25,859 nt of DNA from Candidatus Nucleicultricaceae bacterium (GTDB taxonomy: Bacteria; Pseudomonadota; Alphaproteobacteria; Caedimonadales; Nucleicultricaceae): positions 1-25,859 of the forward strand of contig JBQCDM010000206.1 of the NCBI GenBank assembly GCA_051961235.1, given 5' to 3'. The position numbers were made by a program, and so were the translations under genes. Positions 928 through 22,121 of this stretch are shown here, in pieces. Every line of letters starts with the position of its first letter. Within the stretch, counting starts at the first letter, position 1. The notes beneath the pieces are model-generated. The model did not search any database. It saw nothing but the letters and a program-made list of their open reading frames with translations, and was not told where the DNA came from.

Positions 928-2007
928 TTACAAGATAATTTCACCTTTGATCATAGATTTGATCAGAGGCGGAAGCATCTGGTTGCTGCCTTGACCAAGT
1001 CCAATGAAAAAAAGAGGAGCTTCATTTGTCGTGGTAATGTTTAGAAGTTTCTTTGCTCTGTCGTCTTGAAATGCCCCCGACATCCATGTGTGAAGACCAA
1101 GTGCTGTTGCAACGAGAAGGGTTGTTTGTGAAACATGTCCAACATCCATAAGTGCAATACGATAGGCCCTAGAATTCGGATACTTTTGCCAAACCTTATG
1201 AAAGCAGCTGGTCAGAAATAATCCTGCGGAGATATTTTCCATATAGAATTGCTCATTGAGCGTTTCTTGAAGGGTGGTAGGATGAATATCACTGATCAAG
1301 GTTAAGTTATGATTTTTAACATTGTAATGATAAATGCCGGGCTTAAGACCATCGACTGTCAAGGCTGCTAAATACACCTCAGTTGGATGAAGGCCGCCGC
1401 CAGAAGGGCTCGTTTTTCTAAGGCACAGATCTTCTAATCCTAGATCTTCAATCTCAGCGGTTTCTTGATGAAATTTGCCAAAAGCTGTGAAAAGCAGCGT
1501 GGAGATGTCTAGGAGTGAAAGGCGGCTTTCAAAAAAATCTCGACAAGTCTTGCGGGATGACAGTGTTTCATAAAGACTTTTATTCTTTAGAGTGGAAAAA
1601 TCAGGCTCTGGAAGGGCAATGTGTGGACCTTGTTTTTCAATATAAAGGCCCTGAAATTGTTTAAGCCCTTGGTCGTTCTCATTAAATCGTGTCAACAGCC
1701 AATCGTTAATATTTTTAGAGCATTCGAGATACGGTAAGTTTTCAGTACCTATGTGAAAAATTTTGGAGAGAATGTCCCATCCCCAAGAGCTTTCCTTGTA
1801 AGCTTTCTTGCTTATAATATCGGCTTCTTGAAGTTCTTTGTCTATCTTTGGATCATCTTGGGGGGTGTTGCCTTGGGCATAGAGAGCAATACGATCAAGA
1901 TAGTGTGGCTCCATAAGATATTGCTCGTTCGTGCTGTAATTCCATAAAATGTATCCTTCTGGGGAGAAAAGGAGGAAAATGTTTGGATTGACAAAATATG
2001 AGGACAT
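928..2007 (-). CDS. SagB/ThcOx-family FMN-dependent dehydrogenase (nitroreductase fold) with an N-terminal extension
   Basis: Motifs RKTCRDF, KTSPSGGGLHPTEVY, GIYHYN, WQKYPNSRAYR (Lys-Tyr), MDVGHVSQT..LVATALGL and GAFQDD; about 130 aa of extra N-terminal sequence. Confidence 0.88.
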   Translation of the reverse strand: MSSYFVNPNIFLLFSPEGYILWNYSTNEQYLMEPHYLDRIALYAQGNTPQDDPKIDKELQEADIISKKAYKESSWGWDILSKIFHIGTENLPYLECSKNINDWLLTRFNENDQGLKQFQGLYIEKQGPHIALPEPDFSTLKNKSLYETLSSRKTCRDFFESRLSLLDISTLLFTAFGKFHQETAEIEDLGLEDLCLRKTSPSGGGLHPTEVYLAALTVDGLKPGIYHYNVKNHNLTLISDIHPTTLQETLNEQFYMENISAGLFLTSCFHKVWQKYPNSRAYRIALMDVGHVSQTTLLVATALGLHTWMSGAFQDDRAKKLLNITTTNEAPLFFIGLGQGSNQMLPPLIKSMIKGEIIL

Positions 2008-2098
2008 AGCGCATGACTATCAAATATACACCTGATCTAGAAGTATAGTATTTGTATCTATTTGTCAATTTTTTTTAAGAGATCAATTAGCGCTTTGT

Positions 2099-2728
2099 TT
2101 AACAATAAGACGAAATTTGTCGTTTGCCTGAATAGGGAGATAAGACAGGCCCTTCAATACGAATTTTGAAGTCACCAAAAGCGCTTTCATCCACAGGAAC
2201 AATGGAATAAACAGTTGTGCTGTTTGAGCTTGCGTCTTTAATGCGTAAAGGTCTTTGGCTCGATTTGTAAGGCCAACACCCTAAAAACACAAAGTCTTCA
2301 TAGAGCTCAACAGACGATTTTACAATCATGAAATCGATAAGACGGGGCAGGGAAAAACGAAGCATACCTAGATACAAGTTTTGAAAAAAGCGGCGCTGTA
2401 AATAATCTTGTTCTTGGTCATTTTCAAAGAAGGGGCTAAGAGGCTGAATTTTAAAGTCAACTTGATCAAGGAAAAAAATGTTTTGTCGTCGCATTAATCC
2501 GAAGTGATAGAGTACTTCATCACTGACACAAGGTCCTTCTGAAGAGCGCATACGTGCTTGTCCAAATACACCATTGGATGGTTCATAATGAACAATATAT
2601 GCACATTGTTTATGATTCTCCGCCGTCGAATCGAAATGATTTTCAACGTTGAGATTAAGTTTTCTGATAACGGACTGGTGTAACTGCCTGTGTTCTTCGT
2701 AACTGTCAGGTGTTATAATTGTCAACAT
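2099..2728 (-). CDS. Hypothetical protein with a degenerate LuxI/acyl-homoserine-lactone-synthase (GNAT-like) fold
   Basis: ORF 2099..2773; likely start is ATG 2728 after GAGGGG. HKQCAYIVHYEPSNGVFGQARM resembles the LuxI-family segment H-x-x-T-x-YIV...G-x-x-G-x-AR. The N-terminal R/F/W and E-x-D-x-x-D motifs are absent. Confidence 0.5.
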   Translation of the reverse strand: MLTIITPDSYEEHRQLHQSVIRKLNLNVENHFDSTAENHKQCAYIVHYEPSNGVFGQARMRSSEGPCVSDEVLYHFGLMRRQNIFFLDQVDFKIQPLSPFFENDQEQDYLQRRFFQNLYLGMLRFSLPRLIDFMIVKSSVELYEDFVFLGCWPYKSSQRPLRIKDASSNSTTVYSIVPVDESAFGDFKIRIEGPVLSPYSGKRQISSYC

Positions 2729-2859
2729 TTTTGACACCCCTCTTTTATTATTAAGCCATAAAGAAAACTGCACAAGAGATCAAATAGTAATTTTTTATAT
2801 CCATATAAAAAATTTTTATAATTAAGTGTCCAAAAGGGTTTGCAGGGCTTTAGCTTATT

Positions 2860-4122
2860 TTATTTGTGTGTGCTTATCTCAAAGGGAGAAAAATTCTTTA
2901 AGGAAAGAAAATCTTCCATTAAAACTTCATAATCCTCATTGGCGACAAACATTTGAGCTGTTTTATCGAGGATGCACGTGGGAGCATCAAGCATATCTCC
3001 TTCTTTGACAAACCAACGAAGTTCTGCAGAGCTTTTCAAAGAGAGAGGATGAATACGCTCAATAATCCCAGCTTTCCATGGAAAATAAACCCAAAAAGTA
3101 TAATGTGTTTTAGATTCCTTCAGCGGTTCAAACAGTCCTAGCTTTATCTTGAGATCTTCATCCAAAAAATTAACACCAAATGATCGGCTATAATTTTCTA
3201 CAACCAACGAGCCAGGAGGACGCGCGCTGACCTCTAGGAAAACAAGTTCATCTTTGTCATTTAAGAAAACTTCGAGGTGACTTGATCCGTCAATCCAACC
3301 AAGCGTTTCCAAAGCTTTCGTTGTAAAATTCTGTATCCGTTCAAAAAGAGGATTGTCTTTTTTTAGAGGGATACTGCCATGGATGTTGCCAGAGAGAAAG
3401 GCAAGCCCAGAACTTAGGTATTGAGAGGCTTGAAAGTAGACAATTTTTCCCGCTTGAATAAGGGAATCCGCATGGAAAAGTTGTCCATTAATAAATTCTT
3501 CTGCTTCATATCGTTCATTGCCAAAATGTTTTAGGGCTTCATTAAAATCATGATAATTTTTGATTTTCATAACGCCAAAGGTGGCAGATTGATCGGTGGG
3601 CTTTAAAATGAATGGGAGCCCAAATTCCTGTGCAATCTCCTCGAAAGAGTGTCTTATCTGATCTTCTCTGTCACAATGCTCAAGAATTTTATAGCGTGGA
3701 CATAATATATTGGCTTTGGAGAGCTTTTCTTTCATCGCAATTTTGCTTTTGTAAAAGATAACATCAGCGTAATGCGGCTCACCTAAATGGTAACGCTCCC
3801 GAAGACGTGCCGCCTGAAGCATGTTAAGTTCAGACGTGCAAATAATTGTCAGGTCACTTTGTTGTGGAGATAAACTTTCTACAATGTTTTGTAAGAACTC
3901 TAAGGGGAGAGGACTAAGTTTTTCCGCTGAAGCGGGCGTGTCGTATACATGTATTTCTTTAAAGCACGATTTGATTTCTTCACTGACATCAAGCAGGTAT
4001 TTTCTTGAAGAAGCAAGGTGTAGTTCAAAGTTCTGGCTGATTGCGCGAAGGGTTTTTGCCTCATAAAATTTAAGAAGATGTTCACAAATTAACAGCAATT
4101 TTCTCACTTTGTTCACCTTCAT
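2860..4122 (-). CDS. ATP-grasp domain protein (carboxylate-amine / L-amino-acid ligase type)
   Basis: Motifs ELNMLQAARLRE, SKIAMKEKL, LPFILKPTDQSATFGV, EAEEFINGQLFHADS, HLEVF and FLEVSARPPG. Confidence 0.88.
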   Translation of the reverse strand: MKVNKVRKLLLICEHLLKFYEAKTLRAISQNFELHLASSRKYLLDVSEEIKSCFKEIHVYDTPASAEKLSPLPLEFLQNIVESLSPQQSDLTIICTSELNMLQAARLRERYHLGEPHYADVIFYKSKIAMKEKLSKANILCPRYKILEHCDREDQIRHSFEEIAQEFGLPFILKPTDQSATFGVMKIKNYHDFNEALKHFGNERYEAEEFINGQLFHADSLIQAGKIVYFQASQYLSSGLAFLSGNIHGSIPLKKDNPLFERIQNFTTKALETLGWIDGSSHLEVFLNDKDELVFLEVSARPPGSLVVENYSRSFGVNFLDEDLKIKLGLFEPLKESKTHYTFWVYFPWKAGIIERIHPLSLKSSAELRWFVKEGDMLDAPTCILDKTAQMFVANEDYEVLMEDFLSLKNFSPFEISTHK

Positions 4123-4996
4123 ATGCTTGAATAATAAAATTAGTAAAGTAAGTAATTTTCTTTAAGGTCTCGAGGCGTTTTGGGTAAATGCAGTATAGAT
4201 CAACCTTAGGGGTAGCAACCTCTGACATAATGCAAACAAGTCCCTCTTCAACAATCGCAGGATGTTTATCGGGAATTAAGATAATGCCAAGAGAAGCTTC
4301 TGCATAACGTGTGCGACCAAAAGTGGCATTCGTGACCAGGTAAGGCTCTCGCGTTTTTCCCTCAGGCATACCTACTTTTAAGTGCCAATTGAGGTCAGCG
4401 TATGGATGTTTATCAAGATTACCATAGGCAATAAGCTTGTGGTGATCCAGATCTTGGGGTGTTTTAGGTGTGCCATGTTTTTCAAGGTACTCTGCGCTCG
4501 CATACATTTTTAAAGACATGGTCATCAGATGATGTTGAATAAGATCCTGACGGTCTTTCATTTTAGGTCGTATGACAATATCAATATCGCCATCTGTTGG
4601 ATCAATTGTAAGGTCTGTTCCATAAAGAGAGAGGCGAATTTTTGGGTAGAAATTTAAGAATCGTACGATATGTTCTGTGAGATAAATAGATGCGAATCCA
4701 TGGCTTGTGCAAATCCGAAGAGGTCCCTCAATTTCTTTTTCTTCTTCTTTAACATGAGCGATGACAGCATCAATGTTTTGATACGTATCTTGAATGACGC
4801 GATTGAGAATTTCTCCCTTGGGCGTCAACCGGACGCCTTGTGGTAATCGAACAAAAAGCTCAAGGCCTAGGCTATCTTCAAGCATGAGTATCTGATGTGA
4901 TACAGCTGGTTGACTTGTGTTGAGTTTTTGTGCAGCTTTGCTAATGGATCCGAGTTTCGCAACCCAGTAAAATATACGTAGTCGATCCCAATTCAT
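4082..4996 (-). CDS. LysR-family transcriptional regulator
   Basis: N-terminal HTH MNWDRLRIFYWVAKLGSISKAAQKLNTSQPAVSHQILMLEDSLG, followed by a substrate-binding domain (GPLRICTSHGF, DIDIVIR); 304 aa; AAGGAGG RBS upstream. Confidence 0.96.
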   Translation of the reverse strand: MNWDRLRIFYWVAKLGSISKAAQKLNTSQPAVSHQILMLEDSLGLELFVRLPQGVRLTPKGEILNRVIQDTYQNIDAVIAHVKEEEKEIEGPLRICTSHGFASIYLTEHIVRFLNFYPKIRLSLYGTDLTIDPTDGDIDIVIRPKMKDRQDLIQHHLMTMSLKMYASAEYLEKHGTPKTPQDLDHHKLIAYGNLDKHPYADLNWHLKVGMPEGKTREPYLVTNATFGRTRYAEASLGIILIPDKHPAIVEEGLVCIMSEVATPKVDLYCIYPKRLETLKKITYFTNFIIQAYEGEQSEKIAVNL

Positions 4997-5151
4997 GGTA
5001 ACCTCCTTATATGCATCTTTTTATCTCTTGAGTACTATTTATCTGTATAAATTCCACAATGTCAACAATCCTTTACCTGGCGTGCATAAAAGCATATTAG
5101 AGAACTAACTTAAAGCTATTAAGACTTAATAGTAAAAAAATTGAAAAATTG

Positions 5152-5168
5152 CATCAATTAATTAGATG
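5152..5168. promoter_or_regulatory. Candidate LysR-type operator (ATC-N9-GAT, T-N11-A)
   Basis: CATC-AATTAATTA-GATG dyad in the divergent LysR/mutase intergenic region. Confidence 0.5.
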
Positions 5169-5267
5169 AGGTATGATTTTTTTTGTGAAAAATTTTTGAG
5201 TTCTAGTCAAAATTATTGATTTGCGCTATGTATGCTAAAGCGAGCTCATACTTCAAGGAGGCAAAAC

Positions 5268-5690
5268 ATGCATCGGAAAGTGATCTTATCCAGTATTTCA
5301 TCAGATTCCCATGTCTGGAATTTAATTTATCTTCAGCTCTTGCTCGAAGAATTGAATTTTGATGTTATTAATTTAGGCCCTTCTGTTGCAACGCAGGATC
5401 TCGTGAAGGCATGTCATCGCCATAAACCGACCCATCTTGTCGTTAGTACTGTTAATGGGCATGGATATATAAAAGGTCTTGAGATTATTCGAGCTGTGCG
5501 TCAAATGAACCTTTTAAAAAACATGAATGTGGTTATTGGCGGAAAGCTTGGGGTGAATGGCGTTATTTCAAACGAGCAAATACAGCATTTACATGCGGAA
5601 GGATTTGATGGTGTTTTTGTTAATAGTACAGCCATTGAAGAGTTTCGATATTATATGCATCAAGGCCAGCGCGTGATGCGTGTTGTATGA
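5268..5690 (+). CDS. Glutamate/methylaspartate mutase S (cobalamin-binding) subunit
   Basis: SSDSHVWNL (DxHxxN variant of the base-off/His-on motif), VINLG, VSTVNGHG and IGGKLG. Start at 5268 follows AAGGAGG; the track's 5232 start lies 12 codons upstream. Stop overlaps the next ATG (ATGA). Confidence 0.9.
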   Translation: MHRKVILSSISSDSHVWNLIYLQLLLEELNFDVINLGPSVATQDLVKACHRHKPTHLVVSTVNGHGYIKGLEIIRAVRQMNLLKNMNVVIGGKLGVNGVISNEQIQHLHAEGFDGVFVNSTAIEEFRYYMHQGQRVMRVV

Positions 5691-6943
5691 GTGAGTCAAA
5701 AAGTTTTTATGCCTTTGTTGAGTCTGTAGCGCAAAAGAAGCAGCTTATTGTTCAGCCTCGGATGGGGGTGAGTGATTTCAAAAAAATGGGGCAGGGGCTT
5801 CGGGCCGTTTCAAATTTACCTTTCCCCGTTGTGGCCACGATTACAATTGATAGTTTTACCCGAAATCTTGAGCTTCAAGAACTTGATCAAGTTTTAAAAG
5901 AGGGGCATGAGCTCAATGGCTTTCCCTTGATCACCTATGGGGCTGAATCTCTTCAAGAGCTTTTAAAAACGTATTCACGGCCCGATTTGCTTGTGCAGGT
6001 GAGACATGGATCACCTCTCCCCTATGAATTGTTTAAGGTTATGGTTGAGGGCGGAATCTATTTTTCAGAAGGCGGCCCTCTTTCTTATTGTCTGCCATAC
6101 AGCCGAGTGCCTATTGAACAAACACTTGAAAATTGGACAAAAAGCCTGACATTTCTCGCTCAGTATCCCGCTGCTCACATGGAAAGTTTTGGTGGATGTA
6201 TGCTGGGTCAGCTGTGTCATCCATCACTTCTCATTGCTGTTGCTGTTCTTGAGGGACTATTTTTTAAGCAATGCGGTATTCGAGATGTGTCACTAAGCTA
6301 TGCTCAAGGGACTCATCTTACGCAAGACTTGGCAGCGTTGCGCGTGCTCCAAGAATGTGCGACACAGTATTTAGAGGGATGTAACGTCCATAGGGTGCTA
6401 TATACCTATATGGGCATGTATCCAATAACGCCTGCAGGCGCACGTGCTCTTTTAAAGGAAAGTGTGCGCTTAGCTAAGATTTCAGGCGTAGAGCGTCTTG
6501 TGGTCAAAACAGAAGTTGAGTCAATTCGCATTCCAACCTTTGATGAAAATATTAATGCGCTCATTACAGCGCATCGTATAGCAGAATCAAAAGAGATTTT
6601 GAGTGACGTAACTTTTGACCTAGAAGAATACGACCGAATAAAATTACAGGCACATTCAATTATTCATGCCGTGCTTTCCCTTGATGCCTGTGTCGGAGAG
6701 GCTATTGGAAAGGCTCTTCATAGGGGGATGATCGATATACCTTATTGTTTACATCCTCAAAACAAAAATCAAGCGAGATGCGGCATCGATGCGCGTGGTT
6801 ATCTTCAATGGATTTCAGCTGGTAATATTCCTTTAGACTCTAAAACAATTTCTCCGTACTTTGGACGAGGATTTAAGTTATCACCTGATGGATTTATTAA
6901 TATGCTTTCCTTTATGCAGAGAAAATTCGATGGTGCTGCATAA
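5687..6943 (+). CDS. Glutamate/methylaspartate mutase E (catalytic) subunit
   Basis: Motifs QPRMG, TIDSFTR, LNGFP, QVRHGS, EGGPLSYCLPY, HMESFGG, SLSYAQG, YTYMGMYP and VVKT..ESIRIPT; matches the GlmE Arg-claw and Glu positions. Confidence 0.92.
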   Translation: MSESKSFYAFVESVAQKKQLIVQPRMGVSDFKKMGQGLRAVSNLPFPVVATITIDSFTRNLELQELDQVLKEGHELNGFPLITYGAESLQELLKTYSRPDLLVQVRHGSPLPYELFKVMVEGGIYFSEGGPLSYCLPYSRVPIEQTLENWTKSLTFLAQYPAAHMESFGGCMLGQLCHPSLLIAVAVLEGLFFKQCGIRDVSLSYAQGTHLTQDLAALRVLQECATQYLEGCNVHRVLYTYMGMYPITPAGARALLKESVRLAKISGVERLVVKTEVESIRIPTFDENINALITAHRIAESKEILSDVTFDLEEYDRIKLQAHSIIHAVLSLDACVGEAIGKALHRGMIDIPYCLHPQNKNQARCGIDARGYLQWISAGNIPLDSKTISPYFGRGFKLSPDGFINMLSFMQRKFDGAA

Positions 6944-7234: not shown

Positions 7235-7510
7235 ATGAACAAGAATGATTTGATCGAACAAGTTGCTAAAACAACTAAATTAGCAAAAACAGATGTCACA
7301 AAAGTAGTTAACAGCGCTTTTGAAAGCATTACAAAGTGCTTGAAAAAAGGCGATACAGCAACTTTTGTTGGATTCGGTACGTTCTCCACGTCAAAGAGAA
7401 AAGCACGTGAAGGTCGCAATCCACGTACAGGTGCAAAAATTAAAATTGCAGCATCAGTACAACCAAAGTTCCGTCCAGGTAAGTCTTTGAAAGAAGCTGT
7501 AAACGGCTAA
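7235..7510 (+). CDS. hup: DNA-binding protein HU
   Basis: MNKNDLIE...FVGFGTFS...REGRNPRTG..IKIAAS..PKFRPGKSLKEAVN; 91 aa. Confidence 0.97.
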   Translation: MNKNDLIEQVAKTTKLAKTDVTKVVNSAFESITKCLKKGDTATFVGFGTFSTSKRKAREGRNPRTGAKIKIAASVQPKFRPGKSLKEAVNG

Positions 7511-20895: not shown

Positions 20896-22086
20896 TTATT
20901 CTTCCTCAGTGGGGAGAAGAAGTTTGGCCGCTCTTAAAATCAGCTGTTTGTTGTTTTCATTCTCAATAAAGGCATCATAAGCAACTTTCATTTTTTGGAA
21001 GTTGGCGGTATCAACACCATCCATAGCCACTTTTTCGGGTAGGATAATGTTAAGACGGACAAAACGATTCCCAAAGATTTTCTTAGCCATTTGAGCGGTG
21101 CATTGTGAATTTCCATCCATACAAAGATCCATCAATTGTGGAACATAATCCTCTGCGCCTAGATCAGGATTAAACTCTCTTTTTGTTGATGGACGACCTG
21201 TTCCAATGGAAACGTAGTGATAGGTGAGTGCTTCTGGCCCCTTGTGTTTTGTCAGAATGCTGAAAGCTGCGAGCACTGGGTTGTTGGCATCAAGGCCGCC
21301 ATCAACCAACATGTCTTTTGTTAATTCATCTTGTTCACCTTGGAAATAAACCGGCGCTGACGCTGAAGCTAAAACGACTTTTGCAACCTTTTTATTTTTG
21401 CGCCATGTCACGTCTTCCGTTTTGACTGCTTCGTTTTTCTGGACTTCTTTGCGTGCAGAAAAAGTTGACATAATTTCTGTTTTTTGTTGGGTTGAGTTGT
21501 GGGCTACAACAACTAAATCCTTTTCGATATCCGCAAGTCGTGTGTCTGCGCCATGGATTTCTTTTAGGCGGGTTTCAAGGTAACTCTTATCGTAAATTTC
21601 ATCTCTTAATCCAAAGAGTGAAGAGATGCGTTTAAAAAAAGTATGGTTAAAGATACTGCCGCCTTCGGTCTCAAGAATTTTTTTGAGATCATCCAGGTTC
21701 ATTTTGCCTCTTGAAAGGGCACTTGCAATCATCGCGCCTACCGATGTTCCTGCAAAAACATTCACATGTTCTCCAAGATTGACAGGCTTTCCAGTGAGTT
21801 CACGCATCTTGTCTTGGATTGCAAGCGCAACCAAAATCTGCCACCAACCGCGTATGCCGCCACCATCGAGCGTCAAAACGCGAAGAGGTGCAGGTTTTTC
21901 TGATGGAATCAAAGATGTGGAGGCTGATGCGGTGGTTGTCGTTTGATTTTGCACAATGCCGTCTGTAGATACCACTGTACTTGACTGAGTTTGAGTCAAC
22001 GTTACTCCAGAAGTAGCTTTTGTCTCTGATGTGCAAGTAATAAAAAGAAAAGATAGTATTAAATGAAAGGGTGACTTTTTTAGCAT
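20896..22086 (-). CDS. Secreted patatin-like phospholipase
   Basis: Motifs LTLDGGGIRG, AGTSVG (GxSxG) and VDGG; N-terminal signal peptide MLKKSPFHLILSFLFITCTSETKA followed by a Ser/Thr-rich linker. Start 22086 has GAGGT upstream (track start 22110). Confidence 0.9.
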   Translation of the reverse strand: MLKKSPFHLILSFLFITCTSETKATSGVTLTQTQSSTVVSTDGIVQNQTTTTASASTSLIPSEKPAPLRVLTLDGGGIRGWWQILVALAIQDKMRELTGKPVNLGEHVNVFAGTSVGAMIASALSRGKMNLDDLKKILETEGGSIFNHTFFKRISSLFGLRDEIYDKSYLETRLKEIHGADTRLADIEKDLVVVAHNSTQQKTEIMSTFSARKEVQKNEAVKTEDVTWRKNKKVAKVVLASASAPVYFQGEQDELTKDMLVDGGLDANNPVLAAFSILTKHKGPEALTYHYVSIGTGRPSTKREFNPDLGAEDYVPQLMDLCMDGNSQCTAQMAKKIFGNRFVRLNIILPEKVAMDGVDTANFQKMKVAYDAFIENENNKQLILRAAKLLLPTEEE

Positions 22087-22121
22087 TTTTATATACCTCA
22101 TAATTAACATGAAATAATTTA

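Follow-up and report, generated by a model that had tools for sequence, protein, structure and literature searches.

The stretch of DNA analysed here, called the window, covers 25,859 nucleotides of contig JBQCDM010000206.1 (assembly GCA_051961235.1) from a Candidatus Nucleicultricaceae bacterium. It carries a block of six genes for a two-subunit, vitamin B12-dependent glutamate mutase, an ATP-grasp ligase, a SagB-type FMN dehydrogenase, a LuxI-like protein and a LysR-type regulator, arranged as two divergent arms. The best supported interpretation is that the block contains a LysR-controlled module that would make and ligate 3-methylaspartate. For comparison we use two diverged lineages that carry a counterpart of the six-gene block (L043 and L134), a genome of a sister genus in the same family (G001) and a genome from another family of the same order (G014). 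The six genes, the conserved part of the spacer between the arms and the two flanking genes are as follows.

928-2007, minus strand: SagB-type nitroreductase/FMN dehydrogenase, 359 aa (PF00881, TIGR03605)
2099-2728, minus strand, in an open reading frame (ORF) open back to 2773: LuxI-like protein of the GNAT superfamily, 209 aa (fold match)
2860-4122, minus strand: ATP-grasp ligase of putative L-amino-acid-ligase type, 420 aa (PF13535 and PF07478)
4082-4996, minus strand: LysR-type regulator, 304 aa (PF00126 and PF03466), the first gene of the leftward arm
5128-5225, no strand: conserved core of the divergent spacer, by identity to L043 and L134
5268-5690, plus strand, in an ORF open from 5232: mutS, B12-binding S (sigma) subunit of glutamate mutase, 140 aa (PF02310)
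5687-6943, plus strand: mutE, catalytic E (epsilon) subunit of glutamate mutase, 418 aa (PF06368, 278 bits)
1-801, flank of the block: dac, Peptidase_S11 (D-Ala-D-Ala carboxypeptidase)
7235-7510, flank of the block: HU, followed by PrmA and UvrD/PcrA

Profile searches and a listing of the ORFs recovered all six genes of the original prediction, between dac and HU as it had placed them, and two gene starts were settled in the course of the comparison. The LuxI-like gene most likely starts at 2728, because its homologues are 208–209 aa long and begin at Met16 of the ORF, and mutS most likely starts at 5268, with an AAGGAGG site upstream and a length of 140–141 aa in relatives. With this mutS start the divergent spacer, which is AT-rich, extends from 4997 to 5267. 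The lysR stop and the ATP-grasp start overlap by 41 nt, identically in L043, L134 and G001, and the mutE ATG overlaps the mutS stop by 4 nt. Gaps in the leftward arm are 86–126 bp, with the ATP-grasp, LuxI-like and SagB genes separated by 86–91 bp on one strand, and a terminator scan found no terminator-like site between the genes of this arm. All six genes are intact across three diverged lineages and all are under purifying selection (dN 0.02–0.18 with dS of at least 1.6 against L043). The original statement that no nonribosomal peptide synthetase (NRPS), YcaO, transporter or obvious precursor peptide is visible holds for the window, and a search of the 89.8%-complete genome gave no YcaO match. 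Likewise, no Rfam RNA or riboswitch was found at gathering thresholds in the spacer or elsewhere in the window.

The genome from which the window derives measures 1.70 Mb in 298 contigs and is 89.8% complete, and the window sequence occurs in soil, rhizosphere and freshwater metagenomes. The order is of the Paracaedibacterales/Holosporales kind, because the named homologues of the SagB protein belong to “Caedibacter sp.” metagenome-assembled genomes (MAGs) and to a plasmid of Candidatus Paracaedimonas acanthamoebae. Known members of this kind live as endosymbionts of protists. The earlier description of a reduced, host-associated alphaproteobacterium is thus a fair one, with the host association taken from these relatives. 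Counts at the level of the order given below refer to 23 genomes, and counts of mutase neighbourhoods outside the order refer to 80 named loci of the mutase subfamily from other phyla, in which an ATP-grasp gene was scored within 10 kb.

The mutase of the block belongs to a divergent subfamily and is not an equivalog of the clostridial enzyme, since both subunits score below the NCBIfam equivalog cut-offs: MutE reaches 175.6 bits with TIGR01503 (cut-off 390.1) and MutS 65.5 bits with NF002612 (cut-off 110). MutE retains the equivalents of Arg66, Arg100, Arg149, His150, Glu171, Tyr177 and Tyr181 of C. cochlearium GlmE. None of the seven varies across the 12 sequences of a subfamily alignment (A1), in whose numbering the five substrate-binding residues are R25, R59, R106, E128 and Y138. 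MutS can be aligned to the GlmS/MutS structures 1BE1 and 1I9C and keeps the Asp and His of the DxHxxG motif; its own motif is DSHVWN, in which the Gly is replaced by Asn. This replacement is a hallmark of the subfamily and not a sign of decay, because the signature D[SA]HxWN is common to all 83 subfamily loci with a tblastn match (complete in 72 of them). At E≤1e-20 MutE is matched by 1,458 proteins, and its closest named relatives are Streptomyces “methylaspartate mutases” of about 45% identity, besides Pseudomonas and assorted MAGs. MutS adjoins MutE in 78 of the 80 loci from other phyla. The genome encodes a PduO-type adenosyltransferase (200 bits) and two cobalamin riboswitches, so that a supply of adenosylcobalamin (AdoCbl) seems plausible. 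Neither methylaspartate ammonia-lyase (MAAL_C) nor MutL was matched in the 89.8%-complete genome, and the catabolic methylaspartate pathway was rejected on that ground. From the retained glutamate-binding residues together with these two absences we infer a biosynthetic-type glutamate mutase that would make 3-methylaspartate, which agrees with the biosynthetic role proposed originally.

The ATP-grasp enzyme finds its nearest solved structure in the L-amino acid ligase 4WD3 (E 1.6e-15, 60.6 bits), with 3VOT next, whereas D-Ala-D-Ala ligase (Ddl) models give about 36 bits against cut-offs of 243–457. A LAL_C2 domain was not detected by profile search. By these matches the enzyme is of the L-amino-acid-ligase (LAL) type, and ligation of free amino acids is its predicted activity. 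Its genomic linkage to the mutase recurs well outside the window. In G001 the order ATP-grasp-LysR<>MutS-MutE-HU-PrmA-UvrD is syntenic with the window, with flagellar genes in the place of the SagB and LuxI-like genes, and in G014 a divergent ATP-grasp gene faces MFS-MutS-MutE-LuxI-like. An ATP-grasp homologue lies within 10 kb of the mutase in 18 of the 80 loci of other phyla, and 12 of those 18 share a single operon layout, MutS-ATPgrasp-unknown-MutE, which occurs in Pseudomonas and actinomycetes. The linkage is also seen in one gammaproteobacterial MAG. In the ATP-grasp tree the window clade (plus genome G017) is sister to a pair that includes this mutase-adjacent gammaproteobacterial gene, and the 12-member operon clade stands next to the window clade and its sister pair. 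Three label changes are needed in this tree, and thus the association with the mutase is frequent and not exclusive. One Streptomyces locus of the subfamily has two LAL-type ATP-grasp genes, and further members adjoin tRNA-synt_2-like ligases or NRPS. The neighbourhoods thus suggest a recurring logic of a mutase followed by an amide-forming enzyme, and for the window the predicted formation of 3-methylaspartate and its subsequent ligation is well supported.

Several loci met in this survey deserve mention in their own right. In Pseudomonas auratipiscis an operon (L069:4421-13338) encodes a tRNA-synt_2-like ligase, a luciferase-like monooxygenase, MutS, ATP-grasp, a 498-aa protein with no Pfam match, MutE, a second ATP-grasp and PanB. 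Operons of this type are common to Pseudomonas and several actinomycete genera (also L126, L071, L081, L096, L101, L102 and L123) and are apparently uncharacterised. In three metagenomic lineages a tRNA-synt_2 paralogue of about 310 aa, with the catalytic domain of a class-II aminoacyl-tRNA synthetase, lies directly upstream of MutS-MutE (L159:416-10341, L160:4310-9260 and L161:1225-3879); in one of them, a MAG labelled Coxiella, these genes are followed by an Asp/Arg hydroxylase and a formyltransferase-NRPS.

The regulator and the core of the spacer stand out by their conservation. No protein of the block is better conserved than LysR, with 97% identity to L043 and 90% to L134 against 50–87% for the enzymes. 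The spacer core at 5128-5225 shows 90% identity to L043 and 82% to L134, while the neighbouring spacer shows 63% and 36% and the block overall about 70% at the nucleotide level. A candidate mutS promoter was read by eye within the core (TTGCAT at 5149-5154, a distance of 17 nt, TATGAT at 5172-5177), and its -10 element is also present in G001. A sigma-70 scan did not call this promoter because its -35 element matches at only three of six positions and falls below the threshold of the tool. The core also contains, again by eye, a candidate dyad of the T-N11-A type (TGA-N7-TCA, 5197-5209), and T-N11-A dyads are the type of site bound by LysR-type regulators. We infer both elements from the letters of the spacer. 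As for expression, a single metatranscriptome, from roots, gave any match, and one 340-nt contig in it covers 2351-2690 within the LuxI-like gene at 99.4% identity; no other transcript of the block was found in that metatranscriptome, and its HU contig comes from a relative.

The LuxI-like protein is the least familiar member of the block. The ORF at 2099-2773 has no Pfam or NCBIfam match, and its family has only 9 representatives at E≤1e-3 among 1.84 billion proteins. The autoinducer synthase profile PF00765 matches 5 of 17 aligned family members weakly, with a best E of 6e-5. An AlphaFold2 model (pLDDT 84.7, pTM 0.82) has as its top folds the acyl-homoserine lactone synthases TraI (TM score 0.61, E 3.6e-7) and BjaI (TM score 0.54), and SwrI, EsaI, TofI and FeeM follow before generic GNATs, over a TM range of 0.49–0.61. 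The LuxI/GNAT fold that had been assigned to this protein from the letters is thus borne out by the model and its fold matches, while the acylating activity proposed along with it is doubtful. The doubt arises because the family consensus contains ARL and WECS-type motifs and the window clade has lost the W-E-C-S motif, in place of which FFLDQ, FLLDQ or YHVDQ is found (window, L043, P0121). The chemistry of the window protein may differ from that of its relatives, or the protein may be non-catalytic, and its gene is nonetheless under purifying selection. No match to the LuxR-type receptor domain (Autoind_bind, PF03472) was found in the 89.8%-complete genome. A second LuxI-like paralogue occurs in the same genome at G000:C62:3462-3905 on the minus strand (L154), with 102 bits to the family profile; it sits at the end of a contig, and the matched region includes one in-frame TAG.

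The SagB protein scores above the cut-off of TIGR03605 (121 bits against 78) and below that of TIGR04511, the “peptide maturation dehydrogenase” (133 bits against 240). The Lys-Tyr motif (K275-Y276), R152 and R156 are invariant in the SagB alignment (A3), and a WGWD...H..G block in the N-terminal domain is invariant in the subfamily. In the AlphaFold2 model (pLDDT 79) an N-terminal domain of about 125 aa, made of three strands plus helices, precedes the FMN domain, and the best Foldseek matches are ThcOx, BmdC, 3EO7 and McbC, with cyclodipeptide oxidases lower down. These motifs and this fold, together with the transporter-rich contexts of SagB homologues, including a SagB-AurF-like-MFS unit in Pseudomonas, favour a small molecule or short peptide as the probable substrate over a classical ribosomally synthesised and post-translationally modified peptide (RiPP). 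The unit just named, in Pseudomonas koreensis (L132:8001-11255), consists of three genes, for a SagB homologue of about 39% identity, an AurF-like di-iron oxygenase and an MFS transporter.

Across the order, the LuxI-like and SagB genes form a cassette of their own. The LuxI-like family profile is present in 14 of the 23 genomes, in up to five copies per genome, and the SagB-type protein is also multi-copy (up to four), with about 25 SagB loci of the cassette in all. Nine loci, in seven genomes of four genera, have the two genes within 5 kb of each other, where about 0.3 such pairs would be expected by chance, as estimated from copy numbers and genome sizes. The related genomes are not independent, yet the LuxI-like/SagB loci show at least four different arrangements. 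By our own count a LysR gene lies within about three genes of some 15 of 33 LuxI-like loci, in genomes with only 3–20 LysR genes each. XRE-type helix-turn-helix proteins and ProQ recur beside LuxI-like genes, and so do transporters (EamA, MFS, POT and SSF) and two further enzyme partners, a 2-oxoglutarate (2OG)-Fe(II) oxygenase and a TenA/PqqC-family protein. The MFS protein of G014 was considered as an orthologue of the SagB-adjacent POT-type transporter and rejected (26% over 165 aa to L032, none to L042), and because this similarity is only weak no transporter-based link is used here. On the Paracaedimonas plasmid the cassette reads LuxI-like-EamA-SagB-LysR and lies between DnaA_N/DUF3310 gene pairs.

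Two further features of the cassette loci were recorded. The 2OG-Fe(II) oxygenase, of about 245 aa and 40% identical between G014 and G020, occurs with LuxI-like, MFS/EamA and LysR genes (L042:118-5346 in G020, L005:1250-1978 in G014, L156:4340-7627 and L148). At L138 (G009:C5) and L039 (G009:C3) the cassette has on either side a DnaA_N-domain gene (419-486 aa) together with an 89-aa gene, one of the 89-aa genes being DUF3310, and this bracketing suggests a putative mobile or duplicated unit.

How the block came into being can be read from its relatives. L043 keeps the six genes, with a MutE that is 85% identical in pairwise comparison, and so does L134 (MutE 70%, SagB 53%), where the order beyond HU is rearranged. 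In G001 the SagB gene, a 219-aa gene and dac are found at 0.60 Mb and the ATP-grasp-LysR<>MutSE-HU segment at 1.61 Mb, about 1 Mb apart. The original prediction had proposed to check whether the block was inserted as a unit between dac and hup, and insertion as a unit is contradicted by the synteny of G001. Because G001 keeps the two segments apart, the block appears to have arisen by the joining of [dac-SagB...] with [...ATP-grasp-LysR<>MutSE-HU]. The 219-aa gene of G001 was tried as a hidden LuxI-like homologue and ruled out (hhalign probability 0.2%). In G014, on the other hand, mutE is followed immediately, and on its own strand, by a 175-aa gene that is a member of the LuxI-like family (hhalign probability 99.1%, E 8e-19). 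The association of LuxI-like, mutase and ATP-grasp genes is therefore seen in two families, with a different gene order in each, and the LuxI-like gene behind mutE in G014 argues for a shared pathway.

Taking these observations together, we give about an even chance to the reading that two older modules came together in the block to form an island under LysR control, which would make a small molecule derived from amino acids. One of them would consist of lysR and the ATP-grasp gene facing mutS-mutE across the conserved spacer. Here the AdoCbl-dependent mutase would convert L-glutamate to (2S,3S)-3-methylaspartate, as its substrate claw and B12 handling suggest, and the ATP-grasp enzyme would couple this product through an acyl-phosphate to a second amino acid or an amine, as suggested by the recurrent gene linkage; the outcome would be a small amide or a dipeptide. 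The other module would be the LuxI-like GNAT-fold protein and the SagB-type FMN dehydrogenase, here encoded downstream of the ligase gene. That this order-specific cassette tailors the same product is moderately supported and is its most likely role. SagB would then dehydrogenate the product, and binding or acylation would fall to the LuxI-like protein, whose chemistry may however differ in the window clade, given the loss of W-E-C-S. LysR is probably the sensor of the product or of an intermediate, acting at the 5128-5225 core, and would set the transcription of both arms.

A number of observations weigh against such a single island, and several of them fit an alternative that we consider possible yet doubtful, in which two unrelated systems, a methylaspartate ligation module and a LuxI-like/SagB cassette, were joined by rearrangement and their adjacency is inherited synteny. 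The two halves are separate in G001, and many genomes without a mutase carry the cassette. None of the 80 mutase loci of other phyla has a SagB or LuxI-like homologue, a result of the co-localisation survey that also goes against the six families forming a general cluster, and a link between SagB and the mutase is confined to the clade of the window. The conservation of the block extends equally to the housekeeping genes dac and HU, and because of this conserved synteny alone is no proof of shared function. Further points against a single island are that its transcription is attested by the one 340-nt contig, that both mutase subunits lie under the equivalog cut-offs, that the window LuxI-like protein shows no match to PF00765 at E≤1 besides having no WECS motif, and that the block has no gene for an exporter, an acyl carrier protein or the supply of a second substrate. 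Two unrelated systems would, however, be hard to square with the G014 locus, where a LuxI-like gene follows mutE directly on the same strand, along with an MFS gene and a divergent ATP-grasp gene. They would also sit poorly with the 86–91 bp gaps between the ATP-grasp, LuxI-like and SagB genes, on one strand and with no terminator-like site found, and with the single LysR of the window block, given that the cassette elsewhere usually has its own. Of the single cluster proposed originally, the linkage of mutase and ATP-grasp thus stands (G001, G014, the gammaproteobacterial MAG and the 12-member operon clade), and what is confined to this clade is the addition of SagB.

Two other explanations start from single enzymes. 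The SagB protein could oxidise a ribosomal peptide in a RiPP-like pathway, with its N-terminal domain resembling a peptide-recognition element and the ATP-grasp enzyme making a cross-link or an addition. The TIGR03605 score above cut-off, the invariant Lys-Tyr motif, the three strands plus helices of the N-terminal domain and the cyanobactin oxidase ThcOx as best fold match all point this way, and so does the TIGR04511 score of 133 bits, although the latter is below its cut-off. We regard this pathway as very unlikely, as the 89.8%-complete genome shows no YcaO, no conserved small ORF stands out in the block, SagB homologues adjoin EamA, POT or MFS transporters, LysR and AurF-like genes and not RiPP machinery, and the ATP-grasp enzyme is closest to ligases of free amino acids. 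Very unlikely, too, is a role in catabolism (glutamate breakdown by way of methylaspartate) or in the cell wall (stem peptides of peptidoglycan, handled by a Ddl-like ATP-grasp enzyme and dac). The ATP-grasp enzyme does have weak matches to D-Ala-D-Ala ligases and a D-Ala-D-Ala carboxypeptidase gene does flank the block, but the Ddl scores are far under their cut-offs and dac travels in G001 with SagB and not with the ligase or the mutase. Against the catabolic variant, neither methylaspartate ammonia-lyase nor MutL was found in the 89.8%-complete genome, and the mutase subfamily occurs in biosynthetic clusters elsewhere.

Beyond the block, the genes of the window are housekeeping genes. Amid them lies a gene for a patatin-like phospholipase of 404 aa (20896-22110, minus strand), a possible host-interaction factor in an endosymbiont-type genome.

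Glutamate mutase is known as a supplier of building blocks for a few actinomycete antibiotics. Here the same chemistry is predicted in a 1.7-Mb genome of soil/rhizosphere protist-symbiont type, and since such a genome must import B12, at a cost, the product would seem to matter to the bacterium or to the host. In the searchable literature neither the LuxI-like/SagB/LysR cassette nor the pairing of mutase and LAL was found described. Two patterns appear to be undescribed. One is a broad subfamily of D[SA]HxWN mutases that recurs in company with amide-forming enzymes (ATP-grasp, tRNA-synthetase-like ligases and NRPS). The other is an order-restricted LuxI-fold family that habitually occurs with LysR/XRE regulators, SagB and exporters, and could represent a novel kind of signalling or effector cassette among intracellular bacteria. 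More speculatively, and in our view improbably, the LuxI-like family may be a LuxR-independent signalling system of protist endosymbionts whose cassettes spread on plasmids. Each cassette would then link a LuxI-fold synthase to a receptor of the LysR or XRE type, along with an exporter and one of several tailoring enzymes (SagB oxidase, 2OG oxygenase, TenA/PqqC-like protein, or B12 mutase plus ligase). The signal made here, a modified amide or dipeptide of 3-methylaspartate, would be detected by the unusually conserved LysR. If true, bacterial signal pathways would here have their first step that depends on B12.

Among known systems, the nikkomycin and friulimicin pathways are some of those closest to the predicted island. 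In the former, NikS is reportedly the ATP-grasp partner. The glutamate mutase SanU/SanV (NikU/NikV) of nikkomycin producers supplies 3-methylaspartate (Li et al. 2005, Metab Eng 7:165, as cited in PMC4021061), and GlmA/GlmB of friulimicin is a two-subunit mutase with the same function (Heinzelmann et al. 2003, as cited in PMC9113097). Like the window mutase, as predicted, these are two-subunit AdoCbl enzymes that serve a secondary-metabolite pathway. Unlike these pathways, the window has no nucleoside, NRPS or aminotransferase genes, and the partners of its mutase are LysR, LuxI-like and SagB. Clostridial GlmS/GlmE (1CB7, 1CCW, 1I9C and 6H9E) share the fold, Arg66/Arg100/Arg149/Glu171/Tyr181 and the Asp-x-His cobalt ligand with the window enzyme. 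GlmE is nevertheless distant (phmmer E 4.5e-35, with an estimated identity of about 30%) and the window E subunit is about 65 aa shorter, while GlmS has DxHxxG where the window has DxHxWN, and no MutL or methylaspartase was found in the 89.8%-complete genome of the window. The L-amino acid ligases 4WD3 and BL00235 (3VOT) are ATP-grasp enzymes of about 410–425 aa that join free amino acids, and the window enzyme is a distant match to them.

The cassette can be set beside two groups of known enzymes in the same way. The azoline oxidases SagB, McbC, ThcOx and BmdC and the cyclodipeptide oxidase AlbA/B share the nitroreductase-fold FMN domain with the window SagB, which also keeps the Lys-Tyr motif of the azoline oxidases; it differs from both in lacking a cyclodehydratase, NRPS or cyclodipeptide synthase partner in the window and in an N-terminal domain that is specific to its subfamily. 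The LuxI-type synthases (TraI, BjaI, EsaI and TofI) and FeeM share the fold of the window LuxI-like protein at an identity of only 10–14%. The differences are that no LuxR-type receptor was found in the 89.8%-complete genome, that the window clade has F-F-L-D-Q for W-E-C-S, that the neighbouring regulators are of the LysR or XRE type, and that the partners of the family are SagB, 2OG oxygenase, TenA/PqqC-like proteins and transporters.

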